The notes below the pieces were generated by a model. That model searched no databases. It had not been told where the DNA came from and saw nothing but the letters and a program-made list of their open reading frames with translations. The translations under genes were made by a program, and so were the position numbers. From the NCBI GenBank assembly GCA_002376845.1, contig DFOS01000026.1, forward strand, positions 66,327 through 130,326: a stretch of 64,000 nucleotides of DNA, given 5' to 3'. Shown here piece by piece: positions 15,420 through 31,732 of the stretch (within the stretch, counting starts at the first letter, position 1; the number at the start of each line of letters is the position of its first letter). This DNA is from Bdellovibrionaceae bacterium UBA3535 (GTDB lineage: Bacteria > Bdellovibrionota > Bdellovibrionia > Bdellovibrionales > UBA840).

Positions 15420-15741
15420 TCTTCCTCCTTGAATGCTTAACCATAATCAGAGAACGATTTGAACAAGATGTCAAAAGCCAAGGCGAAATGCTTAGTTTTT
15501 AGGATGAAAACAAACTTAAAGCTTCACTTCATCTATAAGAGAAACAGCCGCGCCCATTGTAGATACTTATACGACCATTACTTTCTTACAAAGGCGTAAG
15601 CAGCTGTTTCTCCTAATTTTTTAACAATTAGCTATAGAAATTACAATTTACCATAAATTTTCTATAGGCTTTTACATCCAGCATTTTCTTGCCTATGAAG
15701 CTCTTATGGTGCGGGGGCACCAGAAAAACAAAGGGGGAAGT

Positions 15742-17163
15742 ATGCAAAAGCTTTTACAGCTTTTCTTTGTGCTGGCAATCAGTGGTGCCTGCTCATTTCA
15801 AGAAGAACTAAATGACCAAGAAACGAATTTTCCAAATACGGGACACCCCGTATTTGAAGCCGCATTGAGCCCGGAAGCGAAAAATGGCGACGTATTAAAC
15901 ACGCAGGAAACTTACTATGTTTATGCTACCCGCTTAAACGTTCGCGTAGGTCCAAGTACGGAGGCCGAGATTGCTACTGTGTTGAATATGAATGATGAAG
16001 TGCTGGTTCTTAGTGAGGAGGACATGGGCTTTGTTGAAATTGAAATTGTAGATAGCTATGCAGAAATAAAGCCGGGTTATGAAGATGCCAAACTTTATGT
16101 GGCAGCAAAGTATCTAAGTAAATCCACCAATCCAGACGAGCGGATCGCGAAGGCGCAAAAATATTTTATGATACAAAATATTGCCAGCGAGAAATTGCGC
16201 ATTTATGAAAAAATGTGTGATGACGGCAACTGCCAACACAAACTCGTGCTGGAAACAGACGTCGCAGTAGGTGAGCCCGGTAAACACGCTTCCGCCTTAG
16301 GTTATTATCATATTTCGAGTTGGCACAAGTTTTACCAAGATGGCGCCGGCAGATACCCTTCTTGGTATCATCCGAACTACCCCATGCCGCCCGAGCCAGG
16401 AGCTGGAATTTTTAAATGGATGGATGATAAATTCCTACCCTATGAAGGAGCGGAACTGCGAGGTGCATTTGGTTGGTTTACGGCCAAGGTAGCTCCCAAC
16501 TCCTACTACCAATGGACCCACGGCACGATGGGCTGGGGATCCGATAAAAAGAAATTCATCGATGCCACCCGCGGTATATGGGCCAACTTATTTGCCGATC
16601 CAAGGAGCCATGGCTGCACCAGAACCGACAATGAAAGCATTGCGTACATTCGCGAACTGTTGGAAGTCGGCACACCGATCATAAAAGTCTATGCTCGTGA
16701 AGCCTACGAAGATCCGAGCCGCATGCAATACTCCGAACAAGCAGAGCCATGGGAATACATTCTTACGAAAAATGGTGCGCAACGTGATGGACAAAAAGCT
16801 GATGCTGAGACTGTATTAGAATCTGGTACACCAAGCTCGGAGATTTTAGAACATGGCCGCTATATGGTAGACCGCTACCCGAATGCGAAAGCCTTCCTTG
16901 GAGGTAATGGCGGCGCAAAATCCGGCAGCGCAGCCAATGTCTATGGCCTAAAGCACGAAGATATGCGGGGCGTATTCTTTGTGGATAGCGGCAAGTTGGC
17001 CAACTACGCACACCCCAGAGTGCTACGAATAGGCGGTTATCAATCCGTAGACTTACCTGTTTATGTGAAGACTCGCTATTATGGCAAAGTATTCCTACCA
17101 GAATGCCCACCCAATAGTGAAGGTAGATGCGCTGAAGATATTATTTACCGTGAAAGAAACTAG
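15742..17163 (+). CDS. Lipoprotein with SH3b-like domain and YkuD-type L,D-transpeptidase catalytic domain
   Basis: Lipobox 'LAISGAC' after the ATG at 15742 (SD AAGGGGGA). SH3b-like 'YVYATRLNVRVGPSTEAEIATVLNMNDEVLVL'. YkuD motifs 'WTHGT' and 'RSHGCTRTDNESIAYI'. Confidence 0.7.
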   Translation: MQKLLQLFFVLAISGACSFQEELNDQETNFPNTGHPVFEAALSPEAKNGDVLNTQETYYVYATRLNVRVGPSTEAEIATVLNMNDEVLVLSEEDMGFVEIEIVDSYAEIKPGYEDAKLYVAAKYLSKSTNPDERIAKAQKYFMIQNIASEKLRIYEKMCDDGNCQHKLVLETDVAVGEPGKHASALGYYHISSWHKFYQDGAGRYPSWYHPNYPMPPEPGAGIFKWMDDKFLPYEGAELRGAFGWFTAKVAPNSYYQWTHGTMGWGSDKKKFIDATRGIWANLFADPRSHGCTRTDNESIAYIRELLEVGTPIIKVYAREAYEDPSRMQYSEQAEPWEYILTKNGAQRDGQKADAETVLESGTPSSEILEHGRYMVDRYPNAKAFLGGNGGAKSGSAANVYGLKHEDMRGVFFVDSGKLANYAHPRVLRIGGYQSVDLPVYVKTRYYGKVFLPECPPNSEGRCAEDIIYRERN

Positions 17164-17170
17164 TTTACTT

Positions 17171-17200
17171 GCCGCCTGTGATAGCAGGCGGCATTCTTTT
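17171..17200 (+). terminator. Rho-independent terminator
   Basis: GCCGCCTG-tgatag-CAGGCGGC followed by ATTCTTTT, 8 nt after the stop at 17163. Confidence 0.7.
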
Positions 17201-17204
17201 GCCA

Positions 17205-18302
17205 CTAGTTCGCATCATTTAAACGCAATAAATATGAAAAAACTGGGCTACGGCGATTTATTAAATCTAAGAGATAATTTCGAATCTTTGTATGCTTGCT
17301 TAAAAACAAACAAATATCGACAAAAAATTTATATTTTCTGTACATTATGGCTATCTTCATATGATCAAGAAATGAAAAACGGTAAAAACGATCACAAACA
17401 ATCTTAGCACTAGATAAACCCAGAGCAACCCCCTCACCCGTGATACCATCCAAAAAACGATAGGCATCTCCAATAAAAAAACATCTGCCTACCTGCATCT
17501 TATTCGAAACTTTAGCAAAAGGGCCATAGCCTCGAAAATCATTTGCTAACAAAGACCCTTCCATTTTTCTCTCTAAACTAGGAAACCGAGAGAGCAAGTC
17601 TTGTAACAAATTCTTTTTATCGAAGTTTTTGTGTGTAAACCATAAAAAAGCCACCTCAATTTTACTTTCGGAAATAGGAGTGACATAAGCCTCAACTCCA
17701 TCATTCCAATAAACTTGTACACAATCCGACCAGGGCTTTTGATTTACATGCACCCGAGCTCCCATTCTAAGTGGACCTGCACGTTTGTTTGCATTCGCTA
17801 GCTTTTCACGAGTTTTAGAATGCAGTCCGTCGCAGGCAAATATATACTTATATCTACTAATTACTGCAGTATTATCTTTTCCATTTTTTACTTTAATATC
17901 TACGTAGGAGTCATGCATATCTATATTTGATACCAAAGAGTTTTCATATATGGTTAGCCCCGAACAAGATAAGGCTTTCTCATATAACTTACTAGACAAC
18001 ACCTTTCTCTCTACACCTAATGCTTTACCATGCAAGTTTCCCTTTACATAATGTTGCGCAGAGAAATACTCTACCCCTTGGAAGGAAAATGCCTCTTTTT
18101 TTTCATCGAAAATAATACCCGCCTCTTCTAGAATACGAACTCCTGCCGGCATGATTCCCTGCCCGCATACTTTGTCTTTTGGCAATTGATCTCGTTCGAA
18201 CAAATCTACCTTATAACCCAATCTACTTAAACGTATTGCCGTATAAAGACCAATAGGCCCGCCACCAATCACTGCCAATTTATTTGCATTATTGTATGCC
18301 AT
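17205..18302 (-). CDS. FAD-dependent monooxygenase (class A flavoprotein hydroxylase, SrsC-like position)
   Basis: Rossmann 'VIGGGPIGLYTAIRLSRLGYKVDLFER', DG motif 'ACDGLHS', GD motif 'FIGDAYRFLDGITGEGV'. The start at 18302 or 18308 overlaps the upstream gene. Confidence 0.75.
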   Translation of the reverse strand: MAYNNANKLAVIGGGPIGLYTAIRLSRLGYKVDLFERDQLPKDKVCGQGIMPAGVRILEEAGIIFDEKKEAFSFQGVEYFSAQHYVKGNLHGKALGVERKVLSSKLYEKALSCSGLTIYENSLVSNIDMHDSYVDIKVKNGKDNTAVISRYKYIFACDGLHSKTREKLANANKRAGPLRMGARVHVNQKPWSDCVQVYWNDGVEAYVTPISESKIEVAFLWFTHKNFDKKNLLQDLLSRFPSLERKMEGSLLANDFRGYGPFAKVSNKMQVGRCFFIGDAYRFLDGITGEGVALGLSSAKIVCDRFYRFSFLDHMKIAIMYRKYKFFVDICLFLSKHTKIRNYLLDLINRRSPVFSYLLRLNDAN

Positions 18303-18840
18303 AAACATCTCTATAGTTATTGTTCTCAATTAAATACTTTTCTTCCAATCGAATTCTAAAAAATAAAATTAAAAAATTTAAAAGACTAAAAAGTAGGGCC
18401 GCCGGCAATAAACCCACCGCATAGGGCAATGCGAATATTTCCAATATGACTCCTAAATAGTTTGGGTGACGCGTAATACGAAATATTCCTTTCTTGATCG
18501 CATCTACTTGTGGCAAAATCATGATTCTTGTTGACCACCGAGAACCTAAAGTAAATATAGCAGATAGACGAAAAACTTGCCCTAAAAAGAATAGAGTGAT
18601 TCCTATAATAAACTGCGGAACTTGAATCACATATCCCTTATAAAAAGCTACGTACGAAAGATAAAACAACCAAGACGCATGCAGCACCACCATGAAGAAG
18701 TAATTTACCTCTGGTATTACCTTGGCTCCCTTTGCCTTTAGCAGTTTCTCGTTTCGCTTTGCCCAAAATAGCTCCGCTATTCTTTGCAAAACAGTAAAGC
18801 CAACTACGAACTGAAAAATATTTTCTAAATTTATATCCAC
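18289..18840 (-). CDS. Isoprenylcysteine carboxyl methyltransferase (ICMT) family membrane methyltransferase (SrsB/BpsB-like position)
   Basis: 183 aa, polytopic. 'GIFRITRHPNYLGVILEIFALP' followed by 'RIRLEEKYL' is the ICMT/PEMT signature. It overlaps the PKS gene end by 10 nt. Confidence 0.75.
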   Translation of the reverse strand: MDINLENIFQFVVGFTVLQRIAELFWAKRNEKLLKAKGAKVIPEVNYFFMVVLHASWLFYLSYVAFYKGYVIQVPQFIIGITLFFLGQVFRLSAIFTLGSRWSTRIMILPQVDAIKKGIFRITRHPNYLGVILEIFALPYAVGLLPAALLFSLLNFLILFFRIRLEEKYLIENNNYRDVYGIQ

Positions 18841-19892
18841 TGAAATAACCCCACTTCTGCACTAAATGCAGGGCCCATAGCTATCGCCAATGCATAGTCT
18901 CCACTTTCGTGCTCTTCTTGTAGAGATCGATTGATAATATCTAAAACAGAAACAGAGCTCATATTTCCATTTTCGGCAAGACTCTGCCAACTTTTCTTAA
19001 GACCACCTTGCGGCATATCCAAAGCCTTTTCCATTGCAAGCAAAACCTTTGGACCACCAGGATGCGCTAAGTATGTAGACACATCACTGCGGTGTAAATT
19101 GTGTTCTTTTAAAAAACTGTCTACTACTTTTGGTATTTCACTTTCTGTTAGCTCAGGCACCCCTTTGCTTAAAATTATTTTGAGCCCTTCTTGCCCTACT
19201 TGCCATCCCATAACATCTGGTGTATCCGGGAAAAAAGCACTCTTCGCATCTATGAAACGCATCTTTGCTTTTGCCTTAAGAGGGTGTTTATCGCCAACCA
19301 ACAATACTGCCGCAGCGCCATCGCCAAAGAGTCCCGTAGAAACAATATTGGCAGCGCTTATATCTTTATTTTGAAATGTAAGTGAGCATAACTCTACTGA
19401 AAAATAAATTATAGCCTCATGGGGATGTCCCTTTAAATATTCTGCTGCCCGATTTATACCTGCTACACCTGCCATGCAGCCCAAGCCCATTAGTGGCATT
19501 CTTTTTACCGATCTATTAAAAGGCAATACATTCATTACGCGCGCTTCTAAACTCGGTATGGCAAAGCCCGTTACAGTATTACTCCATAAGCTATTTATTT
19601 CATTGTAATCGATTTTATATTTTGCAACCAATTGCTCAATTGCCTTTGTGGCCAATTTTACTGCATTGTCTATAAAGTGCTGGTTCTTTTCATCAAAATT
19701 CATCTCTTGTAGATAGCTCTCTACTGGTAGAGCTAAATGCCGACCTTTTACTAGTACATTTTGATGAATGCTTTCTAATCTATCCAAATTTTTAAGTTTT
19801 TCACTCCAAGACTTTTTCATCACATCAATTAAATCTTTTTGAGTATAATAGTTATCTGGAAAAGCCGTTTGAATATCTACTAAATAAGTCAT
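18831..19892 (-). CDS. Type III polyketide synthase (chalcone synthase superfamily)
   Basis: Cys-His-Asn triad contexts 'GLGCMAGVAG', 'YLAHPGGPKVL' and 'ENGNMSSVSVL', plus 'GDGAAAVLL'. 353 aa. Confidence 0.9.
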   Translation of the reverse strand: MTYLVDIQTAFPDNYYTQKDLIDVMKKSWSEKLKNLDRLESIHQNVLVKGRHLALPVESYLQEMNFDEKNQHFIDNAVKLATKAIEQLVAKYKIDYNEINSLWSNTVTGFAIPSLEARVMNVLPFNRSVKRMPLMGLGCMAGVAGINRAAEYLKGHPHEAIIYFSVELCSLTFQNKDISAANIVSTGLFGDGAAAVLLVGDKHPLKAKAKMRFIDAKSAFFPDTPDVMGWQVGQEGLKIILSKGVPELTESEIPKVVDSFLKEHNLHRSDVSTYLAHPGGPKVLLAMEKALDMPQGGLKKSWQSLAENGNMSSVSVLDIINRSLQEEHESGDYALAIAMGPAFSAEVGLFQWI

Positions 19893-20482
19893 ATAGACTC
19901 CTTGTTTATATTATAATGAAGCTTAATATTAAGCTGTATTTCATCTGACAATCTCGCTACTGCAATGCTGGGATCTGGTATCTCCATGCCACTAAGTGTC
20001 CAGGTGCTGTGAGCCACAACATCTAAATCACCACTATCTTCGTTGGCATGCATTTTTATTTTAAATGTCTTTTTCTTTCCGAACATCATAACCCAGCCTT
20101 CAAGCTCATGCTCTTTTGCATCAATAACTAAAGGCCCTGGTATATGAATTACTAACTTTGGGTAGTCTTTGTATTGCATACATTTATTATGTAGCTTTTC
20201 ATCCCGAGACTTATTATCAGTATCCATATCCTTGGCATAGAATGTCACCTCCATATCGCGTAACTTCCCGTCTTTTTCTTCTGCCTTGTACCTAAAGTGC
20301 TTTACATAACCGTCGACATCACTTGAAAACAACCCTACTTTTGTACTCACTACGGTAAACTTCAATTGATTTTCTGCCTCTGCAGCACTGTCATAATCGT
20401 TATAGTCACATTCCCCACTTATATTTCCTGCATGCGCCAATACATAAAATAGTAATATAAAAACAAATAATATTCTTCTCAT
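19889..20482 (-). CDS. YceI-like (polyisoprenoid/lipid-binding) periplasmic protein
   Basis: Signal peptide 'MRRILFVFILLFYVLAHA'. 'DMDTDNKSRDEKLHNKCMQYKDYPKLVI' matches the YceI core (T-x-N-x-x-RD-x-x-L...YP). ATGA overlap with the PKS gene. Confidence 0.6.
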   Translation of the reverse strand: MRRILFVFILLFYVLAHAGNISGECDYNDYDSAAEAENQLKFTVVSTKVGLFSSDVDGYVKHFRYKAEEKDGKLRDMEVTFYAKDMDTDNKSRDEKLHNKCMQYKDYPKLVIHIPGPLVIDAKEHELEGWVMMFGKKKTFKIKMHANEDSGDLDVVAHSTWTLSGMEIPDPSIAVARLSDEIQLNIKLHYNINKESI

Positions 20483-21249
20483 ATATATCTCCCTATTTTT
20501 TGAAAAATAAAATTATCAATACTTACTTTTGAAAAAGGAAAAACGGGCACTTTATGTGTGTATTCAATATACTTTTTATTCGTAGATAGTATTTTTTCCT
20601 TTCGTGCAATTCCATATAAAATATAAGAAGACCAAACAATGCTAAGAAAAAGATGATCTAGTGACATATAAGGCGTGGTCCATATCATCCCAAGAAATCC
20701 AATATAGATGGGGTGCCGGGTAATTAAAAATGGGCCGTGTCTTGGCATTCTATGTTGTAATTTTTTATTTTGTAGACTTCTCAGCCAATCTTCTACTCCG
20801 TTTTGCTTACCCAATCCTACAGCGACCATGGCCCAAAACATGAACAGCCAACTAAGACCATAGAAAATTAAGAAAAAGCTTTCCTGGTGCCCTTTAAGAC
20901 TATACAGATGAAAATTAGACGATTGCCAATATGTATCCAATAAAATGATCGCTAATGAAGCATGCAAAGAGTAAAAACTATAGTACAATCCCTTAGGTAT
21001 GTACCTGTACAAAAACACTTTCGTTTTTGCCCTCAAAAGTAGGCTATGGGGAATAATAAAAAAAGCGACTAGCAACAAATTCGACAATATTTTGTATGTA
21101 TCATTATGGAGCACTACCCTTGGCTGCATATACAAAAGAAAGAACCAAAGCCGAAAAATTGCGTAGGAGAAAATGGCTATATTAATTAAACCCACCAGCG
21201 CAAATACTGGCTTTTTGTTTAATGTTCGGTAACATATGGTTTGACTCAT
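20479..21249 (-). CDS. Polytopic membrane methyltransferase-like protein (ICMT/PEMT/NnrU-like superfamily)
   Basis: 256 aa. 'GPFLITRHPIYIGFLGMIWTTP' plus a C-terminal 'ARKEKILS..KYIEYTHKVPVFPF'. 4-nt overlap with the YceI gene. Confidence 0.55.
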   Translation of the reverse strand: MSQTICYRTLNKKPVFALVGLINIAIFSYAIFRLWFFLLYMQPRVVLHNDTYKILSNLLLVAFFIIPHSLLLRAKTKVFLYRYIPKGLYYSFYSLHASLAIILLDTYWQSSNFHLYSLKGHQESFFLIFYGLSWLFMFWAMVAVGLGKQNGVEDWLRSLQNKKLQHRMPRHGPFLITRHPIYIGFLGMIWTTPYMSLDHLFLSIVWSSYILYGIARKEKILSTNKKYIEYTHKVPVFPFSKVSIDNFIFQKIGRYI

Positions 21250-21274
21250 TACTTTGCCCCCGTGCTATGATTAA

Positions 21275-21319
21275 CTATAGGTATTTTTCTTAGTTTTCTA
21301 TATAGGCAAAATTCCTATA
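21275..21319. promoter_or_regulatory. Candidate operator: three TATAGG/CCTATA half-sites in a divergent promoter region
   Basis: CTATAGG at 21275-21281. An inverted repeat TATAGG-caaaatt-CCTATA at 21301-21319. It lies between the PKS operon start (21249) and the LuxR gene (21345). Confidence 0.3.
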
Positions 21320-21344
21320 GCGAGTATTATCAATTAGTTACGGG

Positions 21345-21905
21345 GTGATTTTAGGCAAAATGCATTACTTCAAACTGAGAAAATATGAGCGCATATATAC
21401 CGTTGTCATCTTATTTGCCATTGGATTGCTCACTACCATTGATATTATTGAAGACCTTGCTGATGGTTACCACCTAAGGCACTTAGGTTTAGATATAGGC
21501 ATCGCTGTTTTCTCGTTTTTAGCGGTGATTATTCTTTTTCGGCAATTACTATTAAGTAAACAAAAAATTAGTCTCTTAGAAAAAGAGCGTCTCATTTTGA
21601 GTCAACTGGCAGAGGAATTAAAAATGCGGTCCCAAACATTTCTAGAGGGCTTATCCGTGGTGATTGATCAGTCCTTTGAGGTGTGGAATTTGACTCCATC
21701 AGAGCGAGAAATTGGCCTCTTCCTACTAAAAGGATTAAGTGTAGAAGAGATATCCGAAATCCGAGGCTCTTCGGAAAAGACGATTCGCAATCAAACTAAT
21801 TCCATCTATAAAAAATCCAATTTAAAAGGACGCCAGGAATTTCAAGCTTATTTCCTAGAAGATCTACTACCCCCTGCCAATGAAATACATGAAAAAGACT
21901 ACTAA
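21345..21905 (+). CDS. Membrane-anchored LuxR-family (HTH) transcriptional regulator
   Basis: Two N-terminal TM segments. The C-terminal 'LTPSEREIGLFLLKGLSVEEISEIRGSSEKTIRNQTNSIYKKSNL' is a LuxR_C-type HTH. Start is GTG at 21345 or ATG at 21360. Confidence 0.75.
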   Translation: MILGKMHYFKLRKYERIYTVVILFAIGLLTTIDIIEDLADGYHLRHLGLDIGIAVFSFLAVIILFRQLLLSKQKISLLEKERLILSQLAEELKMRSQTFLEGLSVVIDQSFEVWNLTPSEREIGLFLLKGLSVEEISEIRGSSEKTIRNQTNSIYKKSNLKGRQEFQAYFLEDLLPPANEIHEKDY

Positions 21906-23883
21906 TGCGATAACCTTAGTTTTACTCTTCTTAACCTGTTTGGGCTGTTTACTTTATTCTAATGACCTCAAGCAAAATAATAAAGAAACAGTCTTTTTAA
22001 CACAATCTGGAATTCGATCTTATGACAGTTTCAAGATCAGCCACGGCGAAAAAAACCTAGTCGTAGCCAAAAAAGAATTTGCCCACACAATACAAGGTGA
22101 AGATCGAAAGCTTTTTTTCGAACAAGTTCAGACTTTAAGAAGTCTATGCGAAGAAAGCTGCGAGATCATTTCCAGTGATATCGGGACAAAAAATATTGGC
22201 GATCTATTCACCCTTGAAGGTTCCAATTATTTTGGGCTAATACTAATTGGCCATCAGCAAGGCGCAGCCGTAAAAAAAGTGATTCAATACATGCAGAAAG
22301 ACAAATACTGGAAGGATAGCATCTTCTCTGGCGTATCATATACCAATTTATTATTAGACAAATACTCTGAATCAATTAAGAAAATTCTTTTTCCCTTACT
22401 ATTTGCTGGAATTTTTATTTTTCTTATCATTCTAAGCGGCAGTTTTATAACTGGAGCTCTTCTATTTATTCCATGCCTATTTGGCGCAGCCGTATCACTA
22501 GCTTTAATTAAGAGCCTGCTCAGCTATTCGAATCTGATTACTTCCATCATTCCTGTATTAATATTTGTATTAAGCCTTTCCTTAGTTTTGCATATTTATT
22601 ATACAGCCTGCGAATTCGGCGGCATGAGAGAAGCCATAGCCGAAAAACGAAAGCCACTATTACTAATGGTACTAACTACATTCATAGGTTTTTCCTCTTT
22701 GTATTTTTCGGATCTCAATGCCATACAAGAATTTGGCATTTTAACTGCTAGCTTAATACTTATCAGTGCCATCATATCTCTAATGTGGTTAATACAATTA
22801 GATAACCTCATTGATTTCAATAAAAAAGAAAGCTTTCTAGAAAGAAAATTAGGGGGATTAAAAAACTTTTTTTCCTATGCTTTTTCATTTCGCAAGATAA
22901 TCATTTCTTCTTTTTTACTACTTATAATTGGCGGTTACTTTCTGAATAAAATACCAATTATAACTGATGCCAACCAATATTTTCCAAAAAAATCGAACGT
23001 TGAAACCAATATTAATGATATAAGCAAGAATGTCGCTGGCGTTCCACTGTTAGAAATCATAATCCAAACAAGCGATGATTCCTCGGATAAAATACTCGCT
23101 GCAGAAAATGACCTAAAAGAATTCATAAGCAAAAATACCTATCATATGAATTTGTTATCTAAGAATACGCTGAATTTTATTGCCATGCAAAATATGCTGG
23201 AATTGCAACAATCAGAGCCCATAAGGGAAGTATTTCAAACCTTAATGCATGATTATGAAAATCAAAATACAACTAGACTAACGATTCTATCAACTCAAAT
23301 GAATGTAGATGAATTTGAGTCTTTTACAGCAGATGCCGGCGAGATATTAGATCAATATGACCTTAAATACGATTTTAATGGTCTCTATTACCACCTGATG
23401 GTCGCACAAAAAAATATGATTATTACCTTGTTTAAAAGCTTTTTTATTAGCTTGATAATAATCTCACTACTTGCCTTTATATTTTTTAAAAAAATTCGCC
23501 TGTTTTTTATATTTATAGCCGTTAATGTCATACCTGTATTTGCTTCATTTATTGTTTTAAAAACATTGGGCATATCTTTTAATATTGCGACCGTAATGAC
23601 CTATAGCATTTCTTTAGGCTTAATCGTCGACAGTTCCTTTCATATCATTCATGCACTAGAAAAAATGCCAATGAATAGTAAACTTTATTTTCAATCAGTA
23701 GTTCTCCCTATTATTGGCAGCACTTTAGTGCTTTGCATCAGCTTTGCCTTATTTGCCGTACATGATTTTTTACCTATCAAAGAGTTTGGTATGTGCTTAG
23801 CGATAATACTGTTTATTGGCATGATCTATGACTTAAAAATTCTCCCCAGGCTTTTTTTAATGGGTGAGAAAACAAAGTGTTAA
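21880..23883 (+). CDS. MMPL/RND-superfamily exporter
   Basis: 667 aa. Two blocks of about 5-6 TM helices, each preceded by a soluble loop, which is the MMPL-type architecture. It overlaps the LuxR gene end by 26 nt. Confidence 0.6.
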   Translation: MKYMKKTTNAITLVLLFLTCLGCLLYSNDLKQNNKETVFLTQSGIRSYDSFKISHGEKNLVVAKKEFAHTIQGEDRKLFFEQVQTLRSLCEESCEIISSDIGTKNIGDLFTLEGSNYFGLILIGHQQGAAVKKVIQYMQKDKYWKDSIFSGVSYTNLLLDKYSESIKKILFPLLFAGIFIFLIILSGSFITGALLFIPCLFGAAVSLALIKSLLSYSNLITSIIPVLIFVLSLSLVLHIYYTACEFGGMREAIAEKRKPLLLMVLTTFIGFSSLYFSDLNAIQEFGILTASLILISAIISLMWLIQLDNLIDFNKKESFLERKLGGLKNFFSYAFSFRKIIISSFLLLIIGGYFLNKIPIITDANQYFPKKSNVETNINDISKNVAGVPLLEIIIQTSDDSSDKILAAENDLKEFISKNTYHMNLLSKNTLNFIAMQNMLELQQSEPIREVFQTLMHDYENQNTTRLTILSTQMNVDEFESFTADAGEILDQYDLKYDFNGLYYHLMVAQKNMIITLFKSFFISLIIISLLAFIFFKKIRLFFIFIAVNVIPVFASFIVLKTLGISFNIATVMTYSISLGLIVDSSFHIIHALEKMPMNSKLYFQSVVLPIIGSTLVLCISFALFAVHDFLPIKEFGMCLAIILFIGMIYDLKILPRLFLMGEKTKC

Positions 23884-25709
23884 AAGTGATACCGAATCGA
23901 CATCGAACTGCGATAGCCTTCTGACTTCGTTGACTTAAGCATTTCCTGCCACTCATTTTCCTGCAAAAGACTTAAGTTTTTGCTAATAGCATAACGCCAA
24001 TCCACACGAGCCCGAATAAAATTTGTATCACTTGAGGCCAATAGATCTTGACCATACCGCAACCTAGCCTGCAACTTCCATTTGTGAAAAGACAGTATGG
24101 CTCCTATTTGAGGGCCTAGATCCAAATCCCCTAAGACCTCCGATTTCCCCCAATTTATCTCCCCCACTAACAAAGAAAAGAGACTAAGATTCGAATAATC
24201 CTTAGTAAAACCATAGGATGCTTTTGTGTACCACCTTTTGTCGCTGACTCTTTCTGTTAGTATGTTTTCTTTTAATGCCAAATTGATGCCCCAAGAGTAG
24301 GAAGAACGATAGGATTGGAAGGATCGAAAATTCTCAATATTTATTAAAGAAAAATCGCGCACCCACACTTCCTCATCATTTGCGCTCAAGCGCAGGTGAA
24401 AGAACTCAACACTTGAGTTCTTTATATAGCCGGGCTCGCGGTCCATCAGGTTATGTGTAGCAAAACGGTAGGAAACATTTCCCACCATTTCATCATTTAG
24501 AATCGAAAACCCCGCAGAACTTGCCTGGGAGCGATGAGCCAAATGTGGAGCTTCATTGGGCGCCCCCTCATATTTAGCAGAATCGGCGATTTCTGCAAAT
24601 TTAGCGCGGCGAATGTAAACTTGCTTTTCCAGTGCTTGAAAAGCTTGCGGCAATTCTCCTTGATTTTTGTGTCTTTCATAAGCCAAATACTCGATAACGG
24701 CGTCCAAAGTCTTTGCAGAGACATCTTGTGGCAACGGCGCTTTGGGCTCGTAGATGATTTGTAAAAAATCTGATTTCTGCTGCTTAGTTAAAATTGATAC
24801 ACTATAATCCAATTTGCTCGATTGAGAGGGAACCACACGCAGCTCCCCTATTCGGCCCACATCTTCTAGCTTTGTTATTATTTCGATGGGATGCACATAA
24901 AAATCCAATTGATTTTCATCTCGCATATCCTCCAGAACCGCAGCAAAAGTTCGAAGCAATACCCCGGCACAGTTTTCATCCAAAAAATAATAGGTAAAGC
25001 CGCCGGTATGTACAATTTCCCACAGGTGTTTGATTAAAAAATCCTTTTCTTTTTTTGATAGACGAATTTCATAAAGCCAAAGATCACGGTTTTCTATACT
25101 GCCATACTGAAAAATACGATGATAAAACGGCATGACCGAATAATCTCCTGGATACCAACCCGTTAGGCCACCAAAAACATAGGAAAAACCATTTACATCG
25201 GAGGGTATATTGCCGGCGTAATTGTAGGTCAGCCAAAAGCTTTGCACCTGTCTGGGAGACTCTAAAAGTAAAAACGAATGCCCAAAAACCGAGGCGGGGT
25301 TGGCAATAAACTGAGAAGCATATACCAAATAGATTTTGCTGGGAGCATAGGAGCGCATCCACTCGTTGAACTTACTACAGTTTACCTTTGCAGCTAATGG
25401 AAAATAATCTTTTAAAAATTCATAGCGAGCGGGAAATAGACACTGAGGATGGCTTTCGTTTATAGGGTGAGTGGCTTGAAAAACTTGAATCGAAGCTTGT
25501 AGCTCCTTTTTTGGATCATGTGCCCCATTTTCGCGGTCTATGAAGTATTTCTCATCTAGGACTAGACTTTTATAAGCACTGCCCTCTTTTTCGTAATAAA
25601 GTAGGTTCAACCAAGCTTGAGAATTTGCCACTTGGTGAATCCTATCCTCTTGCGCAAAGGCGGCCGTAGAAAAAAAACTGATAAGCAAGATTGTGAGCCA
25701 ATTCTTCAT
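23880..25709 (-). CDS. DUF4105 (Lnb N-terminal domain)-containing outer-membrane protein
   Basis: Signal peptide 'MKNWLTILLISFFSTAAFA'. The 'NPASVFGHSFLLLE' region is typical of DUF4105. The beta-rich C-terminal half ends '...IRYHF'. Confidence 0.55.
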   Translation of the reverse strand: MKNWLTILLISFFSTAAFAQEDRIHQVANSQAWLNLLYYEKEGSAYKSLVLDEKYFIDRENGAHDPKKELQASIQVFQATHPINESHPQCLFPARYEFLKDYFPLAAKVNCSKFNEWMRSYAPSKIYLVYASQFIANPASVFGHSFLLLESPRQVQSFWLTYNYAGNIPSDVNGFSYVFGGLTGWYPGDYSVMPFYHRIFQYGSIENRDLWLYEIRLSKKEKDFLIKHLWEIVHTGGFTYYFLDENCAGVLLRTFAAVLEDMRDENQLDFYVHPIEIITKLEDVGRIGELRVVPSQSSKLDYSVSILTKQQKSDFLQIIYEPKAPLPQDVSAKTLDAVIEYLAYERHKNQGELPQAFQALEKQVYIRRAKFAEIADSAKYEGAPNEAPHLAHRSQASSAGFSILNDEMVGNVSYRFATHNLMDREPGYIKNSSVEFFHLRLSANDEEVWVRDFSLINIENFRSFQSYRSSYSWGINLALKENILTERVSDKRWYTKASYGFTKDYSNLSLFSLLVGEINWGKSEVLGDLDLGPQIGAILSFHKWKLQARLRYGQDLLASSDTNFIRARVDWRYAISKNLSLLQENEWQEMLKSTKSEGYRSSMSIRYHF

Positions 25710-25850: not shown

Positions 25851-26417
25851 ATGAAGCAAATTACATTCTTTATCGCAGCTTTAGTATTTTCCAACTTTGC
25901 CATGGCCAATGCCTATAAATGCGCCAAAATGGTGTACAGTGATGGCTGGTTGATAGACTATGAATATTTAGGAAATACTTGGGGTGCCAACACGAAAAAA
26001 CACGGAGCCCTGAGCTCAACCTTTGGCTCCTCCATTGAAAAAACAACCAGTAGTGTGGACCCAGGAGTCTATACAGGACAAGCCATGTCCTCCATGCAAT
26101 ACAGTTCCTCCTGGGGGGATTGCTCCATGCTGGACTACCATATTACAAAAAAGATTCGTAAAGACTATATCGAGCAGAATATCCACGAAATTAGAAAGCA
26201 GATTGCTTTAGGTCATGGCATTCATATTGATTCTTTGGCCTTTCTATCTGGCTGTAAGGGAATCGAACAAAATCGCTGGTTGCACAATCTTCGCCAGAAC
26301 ACCGAAATTTTTTATGAGGCTGAAAACGCTGATGGTTTTGTTCTTGGTTTGGATTCCATGATTCAATCTGACAGGAATTTAAATCGTAAATGTCAAATGC
26401 CCCAAGAATTATCTTAA
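25851..26417 (+). CDS. Secreted protein of unknown function
   Basis: 188 aa, signal peptide 'MKQITFFIAALVFSNFAMA'. Confidence 0.55.
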   Translation: MKQITFFIAALVFSNFAMANAYKCAKMVYSDGWLIDYEYLGNTWGANTKKHGALSSTFGSSIEKTTSSVDPGVYTGQAMSSMQYSSSWGDCSMLDYHITKKIRKDYIEQNIHEIRKQIALGHGIHIDSLAFLSGCKGIEQNRWLHNLRQNTEIFYEAENADGFVLGLDSMIQSDRNLNRKCQMPQELS

Positions 26418-26430
26418 TTTCATGCGGCGG

Positions 26431-27588
26431 CTAATATTTTTTGGCCGCCACCTTTGTAGACAAAATCTCCATCACATCTTCTTCACTCACGGCATGCTCT
26501 TCATCGTCGATATTTACAACGTATAGCAAACCATGAAGTTTTGTTTCATTCTCATACTTTGGTTCTAAACCACTAGCTAGCATCAAAGTATCTAGCAGCC
26601 TTCTTTGATCCTTGTATTTTTGATCCCCGTACTTTCCTTCACGCGTGGCCACACAGCCGCGCGTTGCTACAAAAGGATGGTGCTTTGAAAAAGGGTTCCA
26701 GTTTTTTTGCCCGGTACCGTGGATACGCAAATAGGCCCGTCCAATATCCCTAGCCACTACGGCCTCCTGCCACCAAGTATGATCATGACTACTCTCGGGC
26801 AAAACCATGCTTTCCGTATTTTTAGGTACAAAATTCAATATCAAACGGCGATAGTCACCAAAACGAAAGTTTTTATCCGCATAGGGCATGACTCCATCAA
26901 TAGTATGCACACCCGCTGGAGTGTGACCATCTGTTTTGTAAGAAGGTCTACCTTTTTTAGAAAGACCTAGGCTTGGCATGGTCCACAAACTGCCATCTTC
27001 TCGACTATAAAAATTGCCCCACTTATCTTTTAACAAGAATAAACAAGGATATTTGCGGTTTTGTCGACATAGCATAAATAGACGAATGCCCTCTTTGTAT
27101 TTACCGCCCTGAAATTCATCTGCGCTTGGCGTGTGAAAGACTAAATCCTTTAAGGTTCCCATGTCCGGCATTTGGGAGCCATACACAGTAGCTCGGCATT
27201 CCGTGGACAAATACAAACAAGCGGTAAGCTCATCTCGCTCGCTTTGTAGAGCTAGGTCAAACCTATCCGGAAGCTTATTGTATGCATTGTCCTGAAGATA
27301 GTACTGCAGTCGAATAATGTCTGCGGAAGCAATCTTGTCATGGGGTAGGCTCTGCCATAATTTATCAATATCGGCTTGCTGCATATACTGTTTGTCTATT
27401 AATTCGATCCAAGCATCTATCAAGATTTTGTAATCACATAGACTTGCTGTCCACTTGTGGCAGACACTGGGAACTTTCATGTTTTTTAAGGACTGTTGAT
27501 AGGCTAGAAAAGTTTTTTCCTTGTCGTAGTTTGTTAGAGCATATGAGTTAATTGGCAAAATAATGATGAAAAATAAGAAATAACGCAT
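26431..27588 (-). CDS. Secreted protein with degenerate L,D-transpeptidase-like C-terminal region
   Basis: Signal peptide 'MRYFLFFIIILPINSYA'. 'LRIHGTGQKNW...FVATRGCVATRE' resembles the YkuD H-G...G-C motif but lacks the canonical GC[IV]R. Confidence 0.4.
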   Translation of the reverse strand: MRYFLFFIIILPINSYALTNYDKEKTFLAYQQSLKNMKVPSVCHKWTASLCDYKILIDAWIELIDKQYMQQADIDKLWQSLPHDKIASADIIRLQYYLQDNAYNKLPDRFDLALQSERDELTACLYLSTECRATVYGSQMPDMGTLKDLVFHTPSADEFQGGKYKEGIRLFMLCRQNRKYPCLFLLKDKWGNFYSREDGSLWTMPSLGLSKKGRPSYKTDGHTPAGVHTIDGVMPYADKNFRFGDYRRLILNFVPKNTESMVLPESSHDHTWWQEAVVARDIGRAYLRIHGTGQKNWNPFSKHHPFVATRGCVATREGKYGDQKYKDQRRLLDTLMLASGLEPKYENETKLHGLLYVVNIDDEEHAVSEEDVMEILSTKVAAKKY

Positions 27589-27712: not shown

Positions 27713-30700
27713 CTAGACATTTCTTCGATACTGTCCCCCAACCTCATAAAGAGCATTGGACATTTGCCCTAAGGTTAATGAGCGGGAAACCTGAATAAGG
27801 GCAGCAAAAATATTCTCTCCTCGCAGAGCCACCGCTTTTAAATACTCCAAATCCTTTTCTGCCTGCTTGGCGTGTTCTTGTTGGTATGTAATGCGATTAT
27901 TTAATTGCTGCTGCTTTTCCTCTGGTGCGGCTCGGGCCAATTCAATTTGTGGTGGTTGATAGCCCTCTTCCATAGTTTGGGGATTTTGATAGGTATTGAC
28001 GCCAATAATAGGCAGCTCACCTGAGTGTTTCAGATGCTCGTAGTACATAGACTCATCTTGTATTTTGGATCTTTGGTACTGCGTCTCCATAGCACCTAGT
28101 ACGCCGCCACGCTCATGCAAACGACCAAACTCTTTTAAAACTGCTTCCTCAACTAGATCGGTAAGCTCCTCGACAATATAGGAACCTTGTAAATTGTTTT
28201 CACATTTAGACAAACCGAACTCTTTGCTTATGATCATCTGAATGGCCATGGCACGCCGAACGGACTCTTCTGTAGGTGTAGTAATTGCCTCATCATAGGC
28301 GTTGGTATGCAGAGAATTGCAATTGTCATTCAGCGCCAGCAAAGCCTGCAAGGTAGTTCGAATGTCATTAAAATCAATCTCTTGTGCATGCAAAGAACGT
28401 CCTGATGTTTGGATGTGGTACTTTAACTTCTGTGAACGCTCGCCGGCTCCATATAAATCGCGCATGGCAATGGCCCATATTCTTCGCGCTACCCGTCCTA
28501 TAACGGAGTATTCAGGGTCTAAACCGTTAGAAAAGAAAAAAGATAGGTTCGGTGCAATTTGGTCTATATTGAGGCCTCGTGACAAATAATATTCTACATA
28601 AGTGAAACCGTTTGCTAGCGTAAATGCCAATTGTGTAATGGGATTCGCCCCAGCCTCAGCGATATGATAACCCGATATACTTACGGAATAAAAATTCCGC
28701 ACCTTGTTTGCCACAAAAAACTCTTGAATATCGCCCATCATTTTTAAGGCAAAATCTAAGGAAAAAATACAGGTGTTTTGCGCTTGGTCTTCTTTTAAGA
28801 TATCCGCCTGTACGGTTCCGCGCACATTTTGCAAGGCATAAGCCCTAGCTTCTTGCACTTCCTCTTCCGTCAAATCTCTACCAAGTTCTTTTTGTTTTTT
28901 CTCAATAACCTGATCCATAGCTGTATTAAAAAAGTAAGCCAAAATCATCGGTGCCGGGCCATTGATGGTCATGCTCACACTCGTAGTAGGAGAAGTAAGA
29001 TCAAAGCCTGCATAGAGCTTTTTCATATCGTTTAAAGAGCAAATGCTAACTCCAGATTCTCCTACCTTGCCGTAAATATCTGGACGCTCATCAGGGTCCT
29101 CCCCGTATAAAGTCACAGAATCAAAAGCTGTCGATAAACGCTTTGCCTCATCATTTTTAGACAAGTAATGAAAGCGTCGGTTTGTTTTCTCTGGGGAACC
29201 TTCCCCTGCAAACTGACGCTTCGGATCTTCTCCCGCTCGTTTTAATGGAAAAACACCCGCAGTAAATGGAAAGCGCCCCGGCACATTCTCCAATCGCAAA
29301 TAACGAAAACGGTCGCCCCAATCACTTAGCTTTGGAATGGCGACCTTTTTAATCTTATTACCACTTAAAGATTCTGTCACAAGATCTTGCTCAATGGTTT
29401 TATCGCGCACCTGATAGGAGAATTTATCTTGTGAATAAATTTTTTGAATTTCCTCGTAGGTATCCAACAAGTTTTGGTCCTCCGAGGTAATTTCACTAGC
29501 ATACTTTTTCTTTACATCTGTAAGATCTAAGCCCTCAGACTCTAAGTTATTTGCAGCACCAAGCTTTGAGAATGCAATAGATTTTTTGTCCGTAATTTGC
29601 TTATACTTACTTACCGTCTGCGAAATCTCCATAAGATAGTGAGCTCGATCACTGGGAATAATGATTTGCTGCGCATGATCTACCATATTATCAACAAAGC
29701 TTTGCGGGACTTCAAAATGCCCACCAGCAAATTCTTTTAACTTTTGATTCATTCCCAAGAACAAACGGTTAACACCAGCATCATTGAATTTTGAAGCCTG
29801 ACAAAGGTACACTGGCAAGTCCTCATCCTTTGCCTGAAAGGCCTTGTGCGAACGTTTGTACTGCTTGCGCACATCATGAAGGGCATCCAAGGAGCCGCGA
29901 CGATCTGACTTATTGATTACCAACAAGTCTGCATAATCAATCATATCAATTTTTTCCAATTGTGATTGCGCACCAAAATCAGAAGTCATCACATACATGG
30001 AGATATCGGAAACACTGGTAATGTTCGAGGCTGCCTGGCCAATCCCAGAGGTTTCCGCAATTAAATACGAGAAGCCCATATTTTTTAACTGACCAATCAC
30101 ATCGGGTAAAGCGGCGGCCATCTCGTTACCTGAGCCACGTGAAGCCATGGAGCGCATAAAGATGCCTTTGCGAGACAAAGAGTTCATCCGAATGCGATCT
30201 CCAAGAAGTCCTCCCCCACTTTTGCGCTTGGAGGGGTCCACACAAACCACAGCAACAGCATCCTCTGGAAATGCATTTTTATTTCGGTGTAAAAGTTCAT
30301 CAATCAAGCTGGACTTACCTGCACCGCCGGTGCCAGTAATACCAAGTACTGGCACTTTATGACCTACCTTCGCGATGGCCTCCACCTTTTCGTCTAAAGA
30401 CTCTCCCAACTCCGTTGCAGTAAGTGCCAAGCCAATTTTTCGCGATTGATCCAACCAAGGGTCATAGTACTTATGCTGACGGTCTGGCGCTTGCTTTTTT
30501 GCCGCCTGCAAGACGTTATAATCAGCTCCTCGAACCACCATTTCAATCATACCCTCTAGACCAAGCTTTGCGCCATCGTCTGGGTGAAAGATTTGGCTAA
30601 TTCCATAATCCTCCAACTCGCGCTTTTCCTCATGGATAATGACGCCGCCGCCGCCGCCATAAAGCTTTACATAATCGGCACCATGAACTTTTAAAAGATC

Positions 30701-30943
30701 GTAGGCATATTTAAAAAACTCCATATGCCCACCCTGATAGGAGGAAATACAAATAGCTTGTGCCGATTCCTGCAAAGCCGTTAAAACAATATCGTATACC
30801 GAGCGATTGTGCCCAAGATGAATCACCTCCGCACCAAAATCTTGCAAAATTCTGCGCATGATATTGATACTCGCATCATGACCGTCAAATAAAGAGGCCG
30901 CCGTTACTATGCGAATCGGATTTTGGGGTTTGTAGCTATTCAT
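27713..30943 (-). CDS. icmF: Fused isobutyryl-CoA mutase (B12-binding domain + MeaB-type GTPase + mutase catalytic domain)
   Basis: 1076 aa. N-terminal B12 domain 'IRIVTAASLFDGHDASINIMRRIL', P-loop 'GITGTGGAGKSSL', NKxD 'INKSD', and a long C-terminal acyl-CoA mutase domain. Confidence 0.9.
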   Translation of the reverse strand: MNSYKPQNPIRIVTAASLFDGHDASINIMRRILQDFGAEVIHLGHNRSVYDIVLTALQESAQAICISSYQGGHMEFFKYAYDLLKVHGADYVKLYGGGGGVIIHEEKRELEDYGISQIFHPDDGAKLGLEGMIEMVVRGADYNVLQAAKKQAPDRQHKYYDPWLDQSRKIGLALTATELGESLDEKVEAIAKVGHKVPVLGITGTGGAGKSSLIDELLHRNKNAFPEDAVAVVCVDPSKRKSGGGLLGDRIRMNSLSRKGIFMRSMASRGSGNEMAAALPDVIGQLKNMGFSYLIAETSGIGQAASNITSVSDISMYVMTSDFGAQSQLEKIDMIDYADLLVINKSDRRGSLDALHDVRKQYKRSHKAFQAKDEDLPVYLCQASKFNDAGVNRLFLGMNQKLKEFAGGHFEVPQSFVDNMVDHAQQIIIPSDRAHYLMEISQTVSKYKQITDKKSIAFSKLGAANNLESEGLDLTDVKKKYASEITSEDQNLLDTYEEIQKIYSQDKFSYQVRDKTIEQDLVTESLSGNKIKKVAIPKLSDWGDRFRYLRLENVPGRFPFTAGVFPLKRAGEDPKRQFAGEGSPEKTNRRFHYLSKNDEAKRLSTAFDSVTLYGEDPDERPDIYGKVGESGVSICSLNDMKKLYAGFDLTSPTTSVSMTINGPAPMILAYFFNTAMDQVIEKKQKELGRDLTEEEVQEARAYALQNVRGTVQADILKEDQAQNTCIFSLDFALKMMGDIQEFFVANKVRNFYSVSISGYHIAEAGANPITQLAFTLANGFTYVEYYLSRGLNIDQIAPNLSFFFSNGLDPEYSVIGRVARRIWAIAMRDLYGAGERSQKLKYHIQTSGRSLHAQEIDFNDIRTTLQALLALNDNCNSLHTNAYDEAITTPTEESVRRAMAIQMIISKEFGLSKCENNLQGSYIVEELTDLVEEAVLKEFGRLHERGGVLGAMETQYQRSKIQDESMYYEHLKHSGELPIIGVNTYQNPQTMEEGYQPPQIELARAAPEEKQQQLNNRITYQQEHAKQAEKDLEYLKAVALRGENIFAALIQVSRSLTLGQMSNALYEVGGQYRRNV

Positions 30944-31717
30944 TTATTCTCCAAGAAATTCAGGTTTTTGTTTTTGCAAAAACGCTTCCACACCGATCTT
31001 CATATCCTGTGAGCGAAAGAGCTCGCCAAAAAGCGTGCGCTCCAAATGCATGCCAGAATCTATGCTAATATCATAACCTTGGTTGATGGAGCCCTTGGCT
31101 GCACCAATGGCAATGGGAGCAAGTTTGGCAATTTTCTGAGCGCTTTCCCTTGCACTTGCCATAAGCTGCTCAGCACCACAGACTTGGTTAACAAGCCCGT
31201 ATTCTAAAGCTTGTGTGGCATCAATTTTGGCAGCCGTATAAGTCATTTCTTTTGCCCGCGCTATGCCAACGTATTTTGCCAAACGAACGGTGCCGCCAAA
31301 GCCGGGCATCAAACCCAAACTTACTTCTGGCAAACCAAAAAGCGCCTTTTCTGAAGCATAAATAAAATCGCATGCCATGGCGAGCTCCAGACCTCCACCC
31401 AAAGCAAAACCATTGACGGCAGCAATCACGGGATAGGAAGTGGTTTCCAAACGTCTAAAAACTTTTTGTCCTAGCTCCGCAAATGCCTGTGCTTCACTAC
31501 TAGAAAGCGCTTGCATTTCTTTGATATCCGCCCCAGCGACAAAGGCTTTGCCTTTGCCCGTAAGAATGAGGCAACGTAGATCCTTTTGTTTCTCGAGCTC
31601 ATCCAGCGCCTGATTCAGCTCATTTAAAACTTGCCGATTCAAAGCATTCAAAGAGGCTTCCTTATCAATTGTTATTTGGGCAATTTTGTTTTCAACGTCT
31701 ATTTTGATAAAATCCAT
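30944..31717 (-). CDS. Enoyl-CoA hydratase (crotonase family)
   Basis: 257 aa. 'KAFVAGADIKEM' and 'AAVNGFALGGGLELAMACDF'. The stop abuts the icmF ATG. Confidence 0.9.
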   Translation of the reverse strand: MDFIKIDVENKIAQITIDKEASLNALNRQVLNELNQALDELEKQKDLRCLILTGKGKAFVAGADIKEMQALSSSEAQAFAELGQKVFRRLETTSYPVIAAVNGFALGGGLELAMACDFIYASEKALFGLPEVSLGLMPGFGGTVRLAKYVGIARAKEMTYTAAKIDATQALEYGLVNQVCGAEQLMASARESAQKIAKLAPIAIGAAKGSINQGYDISIDSGMHLERTLFGELFRSQDMKIGVEAFLQKQKPEFLGE

Positions 31718-31732
31718 TTTTATATCCCTTCT

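Follow-up and report, generated by a model that had tools for sequence, protein, structure and literature searches.

A seven-gene type III polyketide synthase cassette with a second membrane methyltransferase-like protein, a YceI-family protein, an RND-like transporter and a membrane LuxR regulator in Bacteriovorax-like bacteria

Operons in which a type III polyketide synthase (PKS) gene is followed by a methyltransferase gene and a hydroxylase gene have been described as srsABC and pkqABC, and yield alkylquinones in Streptomyces griseus and polyketide quinones in Mycobacterium smegmatis (PMC9927152, PMC10896814). In srsABC of S. griseus and in pkqABC of M. smegmatis and Streptomyces sp. MNU77, the three genes have the same order and form one operon. 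Here, we analyzed a 64,000-nucleotide stretch of DNA (hereafter, the window) from Bdellovibrionaceae bacterium UBA3535 (assembly GCA_002376845.1, contig DFOS01000026.1, positions 66,327 to 130,326) and found that positions 17205–23883 are a single, putatively self-regulated cassette of seven genes, A+T-rich and carried by an uncultured marine bacterium. The PKS, ICMT-type methyltransferase and flavin monooxygenase genes of the cassette follow the order of srsABC, as proposed in an initial annotation of this DNA made from the sequence alone, and also that of pkqABC. The likeness lies in gene order and protein families and includes the PKS itself, which is closest to the Pks11/SrsA/FtpA group and carries the tryptophan linked to resorcinol formation; SrsB and PkqB are likewise ICMT-family proteins. 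Unlike the actinobacterial hosts of srsABC and pkqABC, the host of the window is Gram-negative and Bacteriovorax-like, and the cassette adds upstream genes for a second methyltransferase-like protein (MT2) and a YceI-family protein as well as divergent genes for a membrane LuxR regulator and an RND-superfamily transporter. The core chemistry, in which a type III PKS, a methyltransferase and a hydroxylase make alkylresorcinols or alkylquinones, is known, and the cassette is a variant that would add to it a second tailoring enzyme at the membrane and a carrier in the periplasm, along with the RND transporter and the LuxR regulator. Its features are:

20479–21249, minus strand: MT2, integral-membrane protein, 256 residues, ICMT/PEMT/MddA superfamily; its gene opens the operon
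19889–20482, minus strand: YceI-family periplasmic lipid-binding protein, 197 residues, predicted N-terminal signal peptide without lipobox
18831–19892, minus strand: type III PKS, 353 residues, identified by its Pfam domains; Cys139/His277/Asn310 and Trp230
18289–18840, minus strand: ICMT-family integral-membrane methyltransferase, 183 residues, GTG start; in the position of SrsB/PkqB/BpsB
17205–18302, minus strand: class A FAD-dependent monooxygenase, 365 residues from ATG 18302; last gene of the operon, in the position of SrsC/PkqC
21300–21320, no strand: inverted repeat TATAGG-N7-CCTATA, a candidate LuxR operator, within the 95 bp that separate the divergent genes (21250–21344)
21345–21905, plus strand: membrane-anchored LuxR/GerE-type regulator, 186 residues, with two transmembrane helices predicted at the N terminus and a helix-turn-helix at the C terminus
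21880–23883, plus strand: RND-superfamily (HAE3/MMPL-like, COG1033) transporter, 667 residues, assigned from sub-threshold scores

The pentacistronic operon of 'Saltatorellus ferox' Poly30 encodes a lipoprotein, a lipid/isoprenoid-binding protein, two methyltransferases, the roles of which were left open in that study, and an alkylresorcinol-forming PKS that groups with the methylmalonyl-CoA-using clade of SrsA and PKS11 (PMC10896814). Compared by its description, this operon shares with the window a binding-protein gene and two methyltransferase genes within one type III PKS operon, but it differs in that the PKS gene comes last, in that there is an extra lipoprotein, and in that no flavin monooxygenase, LuxR regulator or RND transporter is described. 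In the ftp system of Myxococcus xanthus, FtpA takes an acyl group on an acyl carrier protein (acyl-ACP) made by the fatty acyl-AMP ligase (FAAL) FtpD (PMC5707447), and FtpA-type products are oxidized to alkylquinones (PMC10896814). The cassette differs from ftp in that 17205–23883 holds no AMP-binding or PP-binding gene and so is without the FAAL and ACP, both of which are present at the related loci that we refer to as L004, L006 and L007, and in that it adds MT2, YceI, LuxR and RND. The full ftp gene order is reportedly given by Hayashi et al. in 2011. In bpsA-bpsB of Bacillus subtilis, a pair that the initial annotation had also likened to the cassette, a type III PKS gene is followed by a gene for an ICMT-type membrane methyltransferase; this two-gene system has no hydroxylase, carrier, transporter or regulator. 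The BpsA enzyme uses acyl-ACP starters from fatty acid synthase (FAS) (PMC5707447). The ars operon for the cyst lipids of Azotobacter combines paired type III PKSs with a dedicated type I FAS, whereas the window encodes only one PKS and lacks a gene for a type I FAS. The initial annotation had held that YceI, the second methyltransferase and the MMPL and DUF4105 proteins are additions absent from the srs and bps systems; all except DUF4105 are true co-conserved extras, but the 'S. ferox' operon, mentioned in passing in that study, is a partial precedent for a YceI-like gene and two methyltransferase genes beside a type III PKS gene (PMC10896814).

An open reading frame (ORF) map recovered eight of the eight ORFs that the initial annotation had described, at the same coordinates, and the overlaps that it gave for the five minus-strand genes proved exact. 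These genes, in the order MT2, YceI, type III PKS, ICMT methyltransferase and FAD monooxygenase, overlap by 4 nt (MT2/YceI, 20479–20482, ATGA), 4 nt (YceI/PKS, 19889–19892, ATGA), 10 nt (PKS/ICMT, 18831–18840) and 14 nt (ICMT/monooxygenase, 18289–18302, counting the monooxygenase from ATG 18302), and Shine-Dalgarno-like sequences precede the start codons of MT2, YceI and the PKS. The 10-nt PKS/ICMT overlap is repeated in the gene calls of the related loci L002, L003, L005 and L019. On the plus strand, the LuxR and RND genes overlap by 26 nt (21880–21905). Scans for promoters and terminators within the cassette gave nothing above chance, with one exception:

17170–17193, no strand: G+C-rich hairpin with a 10-bp stem including 7 G–C pairs, between the convergent YkuD-like and monooxygenase genes

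The hairpin probably terminates transcription in both directions and bounds the module on the left. Gene families, close coupling of the five genes and conservation of the cassette as a unit are all observed directly, as are the natural MT2-YceI fusion and the foreign base composition described below, and we regard the gene identities and their conservation as close to certain.

The PKS matches three Pfam domains well above their cut-offs of 27 bits each (PF00195, 50.8 bits; PF02797, 56 bits; PF08392, 57.9 bits; E-values 1e-13 to 1e-15). In an alignment with M. tuberculosis Pks11, its Cys139/His277/Asn310 coincide with the catalytic triad, in agreement with the intact triad seen in the initial annotation, and neither the triad nor Trp230 varies among the ten loci compared (the window and nine related loci). 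In a search of the Protein Data Bank (PDB), Pks11 was the nearest solved structure (7.7e-76, 259 bits, 37% identity over the full length), followed by the alkylresorcinol-forming CylI (3e-64, 221 bits); THNS (142 bits), Pks18 (107 bits), Steely1 and plant enzymes ranked far lower, and ArsC (3VS8) was not among the best 60 matches. Homologs number in the thousands. The closest have 52–66% identity, and those that carry a name belong to Bacteriovorax, Halobacteriovoraceae or Bacteriovoracaceae; the next relatives, at ~50% identity, are from Candidatus Uabimicrobium and Myxococcota. A tryptophan at the position of ArsB Trp281, which corresponds to residue 230 of PKS11, is required for aldol cyclization to resorcinols (PMC5916927, PMC6274091, PMC9927152) and is reportedly shared by the resorcinol formers FtpA, SrsA, PKS10 and PKS11, a group that also uses methylmalonyl-CoA (PMC5916927). 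Trp230 of the window PKS occupies this very position, and the diagnostic residue is present in the window and the nine related loci. Structure ranking together with Trp230 places the PKS, as a functional prediction, with the SrsA/FtpA/PKS10-11 group.

Of the two enzymes encoded downstream of the PKS, the 183-residue protein matches Pfam ICMT (3.3e-23) and PEMT (1.1e-10). The monooxygenase, for which the longest ORF begins at TTG 18329, matches FAD_binding_3 (4.6e-18), all of its GG-reductase/UbiH-type NCBIfam matches are below cut-off, and its PDB matches include p-hydroxybenzoate hydroxylase and flavin halogenases. Orthologs of the monooxygenase with 43–45% identity close the operon in L002, L003 and L005.

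The full gene order, with RND and LuxR divergent from MT2-YceI-PKS-ICMT-flavin monooxygenase (FMO), is found in at least seven other genomes of Bacteriovoracaceae, Halobacteriovoraceae or Oligoflexia:

L002/L008: full cassette, Bacteriovorax sp. BSW11_IV
L003/L013: full cassette, Tara scaffold
L005/L009/L014: full cassette, Bacteriovoracaceae UBA3083
L010: full cassette, Oligoflexia metagenome-assembled genome (MAG)
L015, L016, L019: full cassettes, three further metagenomic contigs

All seven proteins are orthologous across these loci (37–66% identity), and the flanking genes differ at every locus where flanks are seen, L010 and L015 being short contigs with little flank. Because scans of a genome collection and of metagenomes with the MT2 alignment returned 4 and 6 loci with narrow patterns, this taxonomic range is a lower bound. 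The comparison of synteny that the initial annotation had suggested thus found YceI, the second methyltransferase, LuxR and RND recurring gene for gene. The same comparison does not extend to the DUF4105 outer-membrane protein, which the initial annotation had counted as part of the module:

23880–25709, minus strand: DUF4105/Lnb protein, 609 residues, with Lnb_N, DUF7840 and DUF7843 domains; converges on LuxR-RND

We rejected this gene as a member of the system: tblastn found no match to it in the related loci, and it has host-like G+C content and lies outside the G+C dip described below. The kind of module that the initial annotation had recognized, therefore, stands, but its extent is seven genes (17205–23883) rather than eight. 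The Lnb, YkuD-like and DUF3015 neighbors of the window never recur at the related loci. We also note that a 24-kb contig of a very large assembly (L001; GCA_001372055.1, CEWK01133350.1) shows no difference from the window over the length of the cassette; the same proteins carry identifiers of Tara station 132 SRF 0.22–3 µm, indicating that the window is of metagenomic origin, a surface scaffold of Tara Oceans station 132. A tblastx comparison of the window with the flanks of the related loci gave one hit, uninformative as to the taxonomy of the host.

More distant relatives have other arrangements. In L004 (Bacteriovoracaceae MAG) and L007 (Ca. Uabimicrobium), the order is PKS-ICMT-ACP-FAAL-FMO, which we take to be that of M. 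xanthus ftp. L006/L011 (Bacteriovoracaceae EA23-02) is intermediate, with RND-HK-RR (HK, histidine kinase; RR, response regulator) divergent from MT2-YceI-PKS-ICMT-ACP-FAAL-FMO. This suggests a putative evolutionary series from the L004/L007 form through the L006 form to that of the window, in which the ACP and FAAL would have been lost and a membrane LuxR protein would have replaced the two-component pair.

MT2 has its best match in the NCBIfam MddA model (NF045656; 5.2e-22, model positions 47–235 of 238), but at 78.3 bits against a cut-off of 270. Judged by this score, MT2 is a relative, not a member, of MddA, a methanethiol S-methyltransferase. No Pfam family matched MT2 above threshold. 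A profile of MT2 matches the structure of Ma-ICMT (4A2N) at 3.4e-5, an RHPxY...E motif (RHPIY...KE) is invariant, and MT2 and the ICMT protein of the cassette are alike only in the C-terminal cofactor region (33% identity over 61 residues). The AlphaFold2 (AF2) model of MT2 has a pLDDT of 88, and its best Foldseek matches are ICMT-like and steroid-5-alpha-reductase folds; these matches are weak (E-values of 0.12 or more, TM-scores of 0.25–0.36), and nothing was found at E ≤ 0.001. An exhaustive HMMER scan with the MT2 profile gave 412 clusters at E ≤ 1e-30 and 2859 at E ≤ 1e-10, as befits a broad superfamily, and a word-indexed protein search gave 5 and then 18 matches. The likeliest reading of MT2, as predicted from these matches, is a methyltransferase. 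We note in passing a distant MT2 homolog (25% identity) in an unrelated context in L018, next to an HxlR-SCP2 regulator and near a group II intron reverse transcriptase/maturase (12925–14238 of L018).

The YceI protein has an N-terminal hydrophobic segment (residues 1–19) and matches Pfam YceI (PF04264) at 4.3e-7, with 30.8 bits against a gathering threshold of 23.7. A single-sequence PDB search gave no match and a profile was needed; built from five orthologs, it matches a polyisoprenoid-binding protein of C. jejuni (5W2X, 1.9e-8) and E. coli YceI (1Y0G, 7.6e-5). YceI proteins have, to our knowledge, only a loosely defined function in the cell. Among the closest relatives of MT2 are two mutually independent natural fusions with YceI, P0140 (501 residues) and P0143 (450 residues), and in both the YceI domain comes after MT2 and is joined to it via a hydrophobic segment that matches the YceI signal peptide. 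P0140 lies within an otherwise identical cassette (L019, 8001–9506) and was read on three contigs, with gene calls from an NCBI genome assembly and a Logan assembly, while P0143 (L020, 1857–3209; L021, 52–1404) adjoins a LuxR gene and has no PKS gene in its vicinity. Fusions of this kind argue strongly for a joint action of the two proteins at the membrane–periplasm interface. In L017, an MT2-YceI pair (1018–2404) is followed by convergent genes, and no PKS was detected on this 3.7-kb contig. Because MT2-YceI is seen without an adjacent PKS in L017 and L020/L021, the pair is, as far as gene neighborhoods tell, a sub-module in its own right.

The membrane-anchored LuxR regulator of the initial annotation is borne out by a Pfam GerE match above gathering threshold (1.1e-6, 28.6 bits against 23.5) and two predicted transmembrane segments (residues 17–35 and 47–65). 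Against the NCBIfam LIC13292 family, it scored 98 bits (5.9e-28) with a cut-off of 200 and, thus, falls short of membership in this subfamily. Orthologs with 45–54% identity occupy the same position in seven loci. The inverted repeat TATAGG-N7-CCTATA between the divergent genes occurs once in the window, where 0.05 occurrences are expected by chance, and a further CTATAGG copy lies at ~21276–21282. A related TAGG-N7/8-CC(T/C)A is found at the matching position in L005, L010, L015 and L016, is degenerate in L002 and L003, and is absent in L006, where the two-component system stands in for LuxR. It is plausible that the repeat is the operator for the LuxR-type regulator.

The overlapping MMPL/RND transporter gene that the initial annotation had proposed is supported by weak but consistent matches. 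The protein of the window has no Pfam match and scores below cut-off against TIGR00921 (HAE3; 6e-13, 47.7 bits against 351.9) and HpnN (1.3e-6); Pfam MMPL matches four of five orthologs (best E-value 1.9e-4), an RND profile matches CmeB within its transmembrane region (9.4e-6), and the annotation given by the Tara source is COG1033/K07003. The protein has nine hydrophobic segments in two clusters, and a single-sequence AF2 model was unusable (pLDDT 39.6). HpnN/MmpL-type exporters are likewise RND proteins of the 12-helix type with small periplasmic loops, encoded beside genes for hydrophobic envelope lipids; the window protein, a putative counterpart, scores far below the cut-offs of these families. 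The cassette holds no gene for a membrane-fusion protein or an outer-membrane factor.

The cassette has a G+C content of 0.358 over 17205–23883, against 0.425 in the remaining window, a difference of ~7 percentage points, and the lowest of all 6.7-kb sliding G+C windows begins at 17201. The G+C shift that the initial annotation had estimated by hand is, therefore, real, but the contrast it gave, 27–42% inside the island and 50–58% in icmF and maeB, is larger than the data support: the values for icmF and maeB find no support at gene scale, with no 1-kb segment of the window above 0.481. G+C content at third codon positions (GC3) is 0.31–0.37 in the seven cassette genes compared with a mean of ~0.41 in the other 46 ORFs (Mann–Whitney p = 5e-5). 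The edges of the dip are the edges of the conserved cassette: the YkuD-like gene on the left (15706–17163) is host-like with a GC3 of 0.46, as is the DUF4105/Lnb gene on the right (G+C 0.417, GC3 0.411), and the island stops at 23883. A compositional shift matching a discrete gene block, as in a genomic island, is, thus, present.

The horizontal acquisition suggested in the initial annotation gains further support from the comparison of hosts. In the low-G+C carriers L002, L003, L005 and L016, cassette GC3 is equal to or slightly above that of the flanks, and in L006, with 45% G+C, it matches them; in the window and L019, whose hosts have ~41–43% G+C, it is 5–8 points below. This pattern, with low cassette GC3 in the window and L019 only, argues against a purely gene-intrinsic bias and favors recent acquisition. 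We also considered that low G+C content stems from the residue composition of membrane proteins, or from a mutation bias in this region, rather than from horizontal transfer. This seems unlikely to us, because the deficit persists at third codon positions, the soluble PKS (GC3 0.311) and monooxygenase (0.317) included, because low-G+C hosts show no such deficit, and because the edges of the dip coincide with those of the conserved cassette. In its favor, total cassette G+C is also 0.5–2 points under the flanks in the low-G+C relatives, and the usual marks of mobility were not found: the window has no tRNA gene, there are no integrase or transposase domains within ~10 kb of the cassette, direct repeats around the cassette are short and at chance level, and no empty site was seen, a metagenome search with the Lnb protein having given no relatives. 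Taken together, base composition suggests that the cassette probably entered this genome from a relative within the same bacterial group that has a lower G+C content.

Based on these data, we propose an srsABC/pkqABC-type route to a methoxy-alkyl(hydro)quinone or alkylresorcinol with a second methylation, periplasmic hand-off, export and LuxR control, and consider this scheme somewhat likelier to be right than wrong. Specifically, the type III PKS would load a long-chain fatty acyl starter, probably as acyl-CoA or as acyl-ACP from FAS, given that the cassette lacks the dedicated FAAL and ACP found in the ancestral form, extend it with malonyl-CoA, perhaps also methylmalonyl-CoA, and close the ring by Trp230-dependent aldol cyclization to give a 5-alkylresorcinol. 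The ICMT-type enzyme would methylate and the flavin monooxygenase hydroxylate this resorcinol, yielding a methoxy-alkyl-hydroquinone or benzoquinone as in SrsABC and PkqABC. The MddA-like MT2 would then add a further methyl group at the membrane and hand the amphiphile to periplasmic YceI, and the RND/MMPL-like pump would extract it from the inner membrane in the direction of the periplasm or the outer membrane, while the two-helix membrane LuxR would control both divergent promoters via TATAGG-N7-CCTATA. Export of an envelope lipid by the cassette is what we infer from its gene content.

Several observations pull the other way. MT2 is below the curated cut-off of every family, and its superfamily also holds reductases (steroid 5-alpha-reductase, DUF1295). 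The RND assignment depends on sub-threshold scores. The occurrence of MT2-YceI without an adjacent PKS in L017 and, with LuxR, in L020 implies that its substrate need not be a polyketide. Finally, the PDB names Pks11, the closest solved relative of the PKS, an alpha-pyrone synthase, which makes the ring type uncertain.

A more far-reaching version of the scheme, which we put forward tentatively, is that MT2, YceI, RND and LuxR form a dedicated periplasmic trafficking and tailoring system through which polyketide phenolic lipids or quinones would reach the outer envelope in Bacteriovorax-like predators, with the YceI carrier docked on or fused to MT2. Alternatively, the product could be a polyketide quinone that does not leave the inner membrane but acts there as an alternative electron carrier in respiration, like the polyketide quinones of mycobacteria and Streptomyces, with YceI and MT2 serving in quinone handling and RND not exporting the product. 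In favor of this alternative, the core trio has the gene order and protein families of pkqABC (PMC9927152), Pks11 is the nearest match of the PKS, and the PDB names the relatives of YceI polyisoprenoid-binding proteins. Nevertheless, we judge it unlikely: at least eight genomes keep a periplasmic carrier and an RND transporter together with the pathway, whereas an inner-membrane electron carrier would need neither, and the cassette holds no respiratory genes.

Less likely still is that the product is a secreted bioactive or signaling phenolic lipid, such as a diffusible signal or an antibacterial that serves in predation, with RND providing efflux and self-protection and LuxR sensing the product. 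The tight linkage of transporter and regulator to the biosynthetic genes and the predatory lineages of the carriers agree with such a role, as do the inhibition zones given by alkylresorcinol-containing extracts in a planctomycete study (PMC10896814). However, the RND protein is nearer to the HAE3/MMPL/HpnN lipid-transporter branch than to the tripartite drug-efflux type, and the cassette lacks membrane-fusion and outer-membrane-factor genes. Moreover, long-chain phenolic lipids diffuse poorly. Equally improbable in our view is that the PKS makes alkylpyrones rather than alkylresorcinols and that the tailoring enzymes act on the pyrone or on another lipid: JGI does name homologs 'alkylresorcinol/alkylpyrone synthase', but a residue that resorcinol formation reportedly requires (PMC5916927), Trp230, does not vary within the family, and a phenol hydroxylase and an O-methyltransferase suit an aromatic substrate.

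Turning to the surroundings of the cassette, proteins with a YkuD (L,D-transpeptidase) domain flank the cassette plus Lnb on both sides (15706–17163, plus strand; 26431–27588, minus strand), the second being just below the Pfam cut-off and lying beyond the Lnb gene and a DUF3015 gene (25851–26417). By their predicted domains, both are envelope-related host genes, and they are not co-conserved with the cassette. The gene called icmF in the initial annotation (27713–30943, minus strand) encodes B12-binding, MeaB GTPase and methylmalonyl-CoA-mutase domains, an architecture that we take to be that of a fused isobutyryl-CoA mutase; it has host-like G+C content, lies outside the cassette and is followed by genes for an enoyl-CoA hydratase and a 3-hydroxyacyl-CoA dehydrogenase (30944–32587). 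We speculate that this region could supply acyl-CoA starters. Elsewhere in the window, a gene at 9607–11448 (minus strand) encodes a 613-residue RCC1-repeat protein with an unusual codon-position composition (GC2 0.55, GC1 0.47, GC3 0.32).

Full-text searches of a library of papers found none linking Bacteriovorax-like bacteria or YceI to a type III PKS and none naming both YceI and 'type III polyketide synthase'. The cassette adds Bacteriovorax-like bacteria as a new host group for this pathway. Its operon structure and the natural fusion tie the pathway to YceI and to an MddA-like enzyme, and so offer a direct test of YceI cargo. The set of loci further suggests how a biosynthetic trio gains genes for a regulator, a carrier and an exporter and then moves between genomes as a unit. 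If the product is a quinone, it could matter for respiration; if it reaches the outer membrane, it could matter for the envelope properties of the predator. If MT2, YceI, RND and LuxR do act as a dedicated trafficking system, the YceI family would gain a defined class of physiological ligands, and an envelope lipid specific to bacterial predators would come to light.

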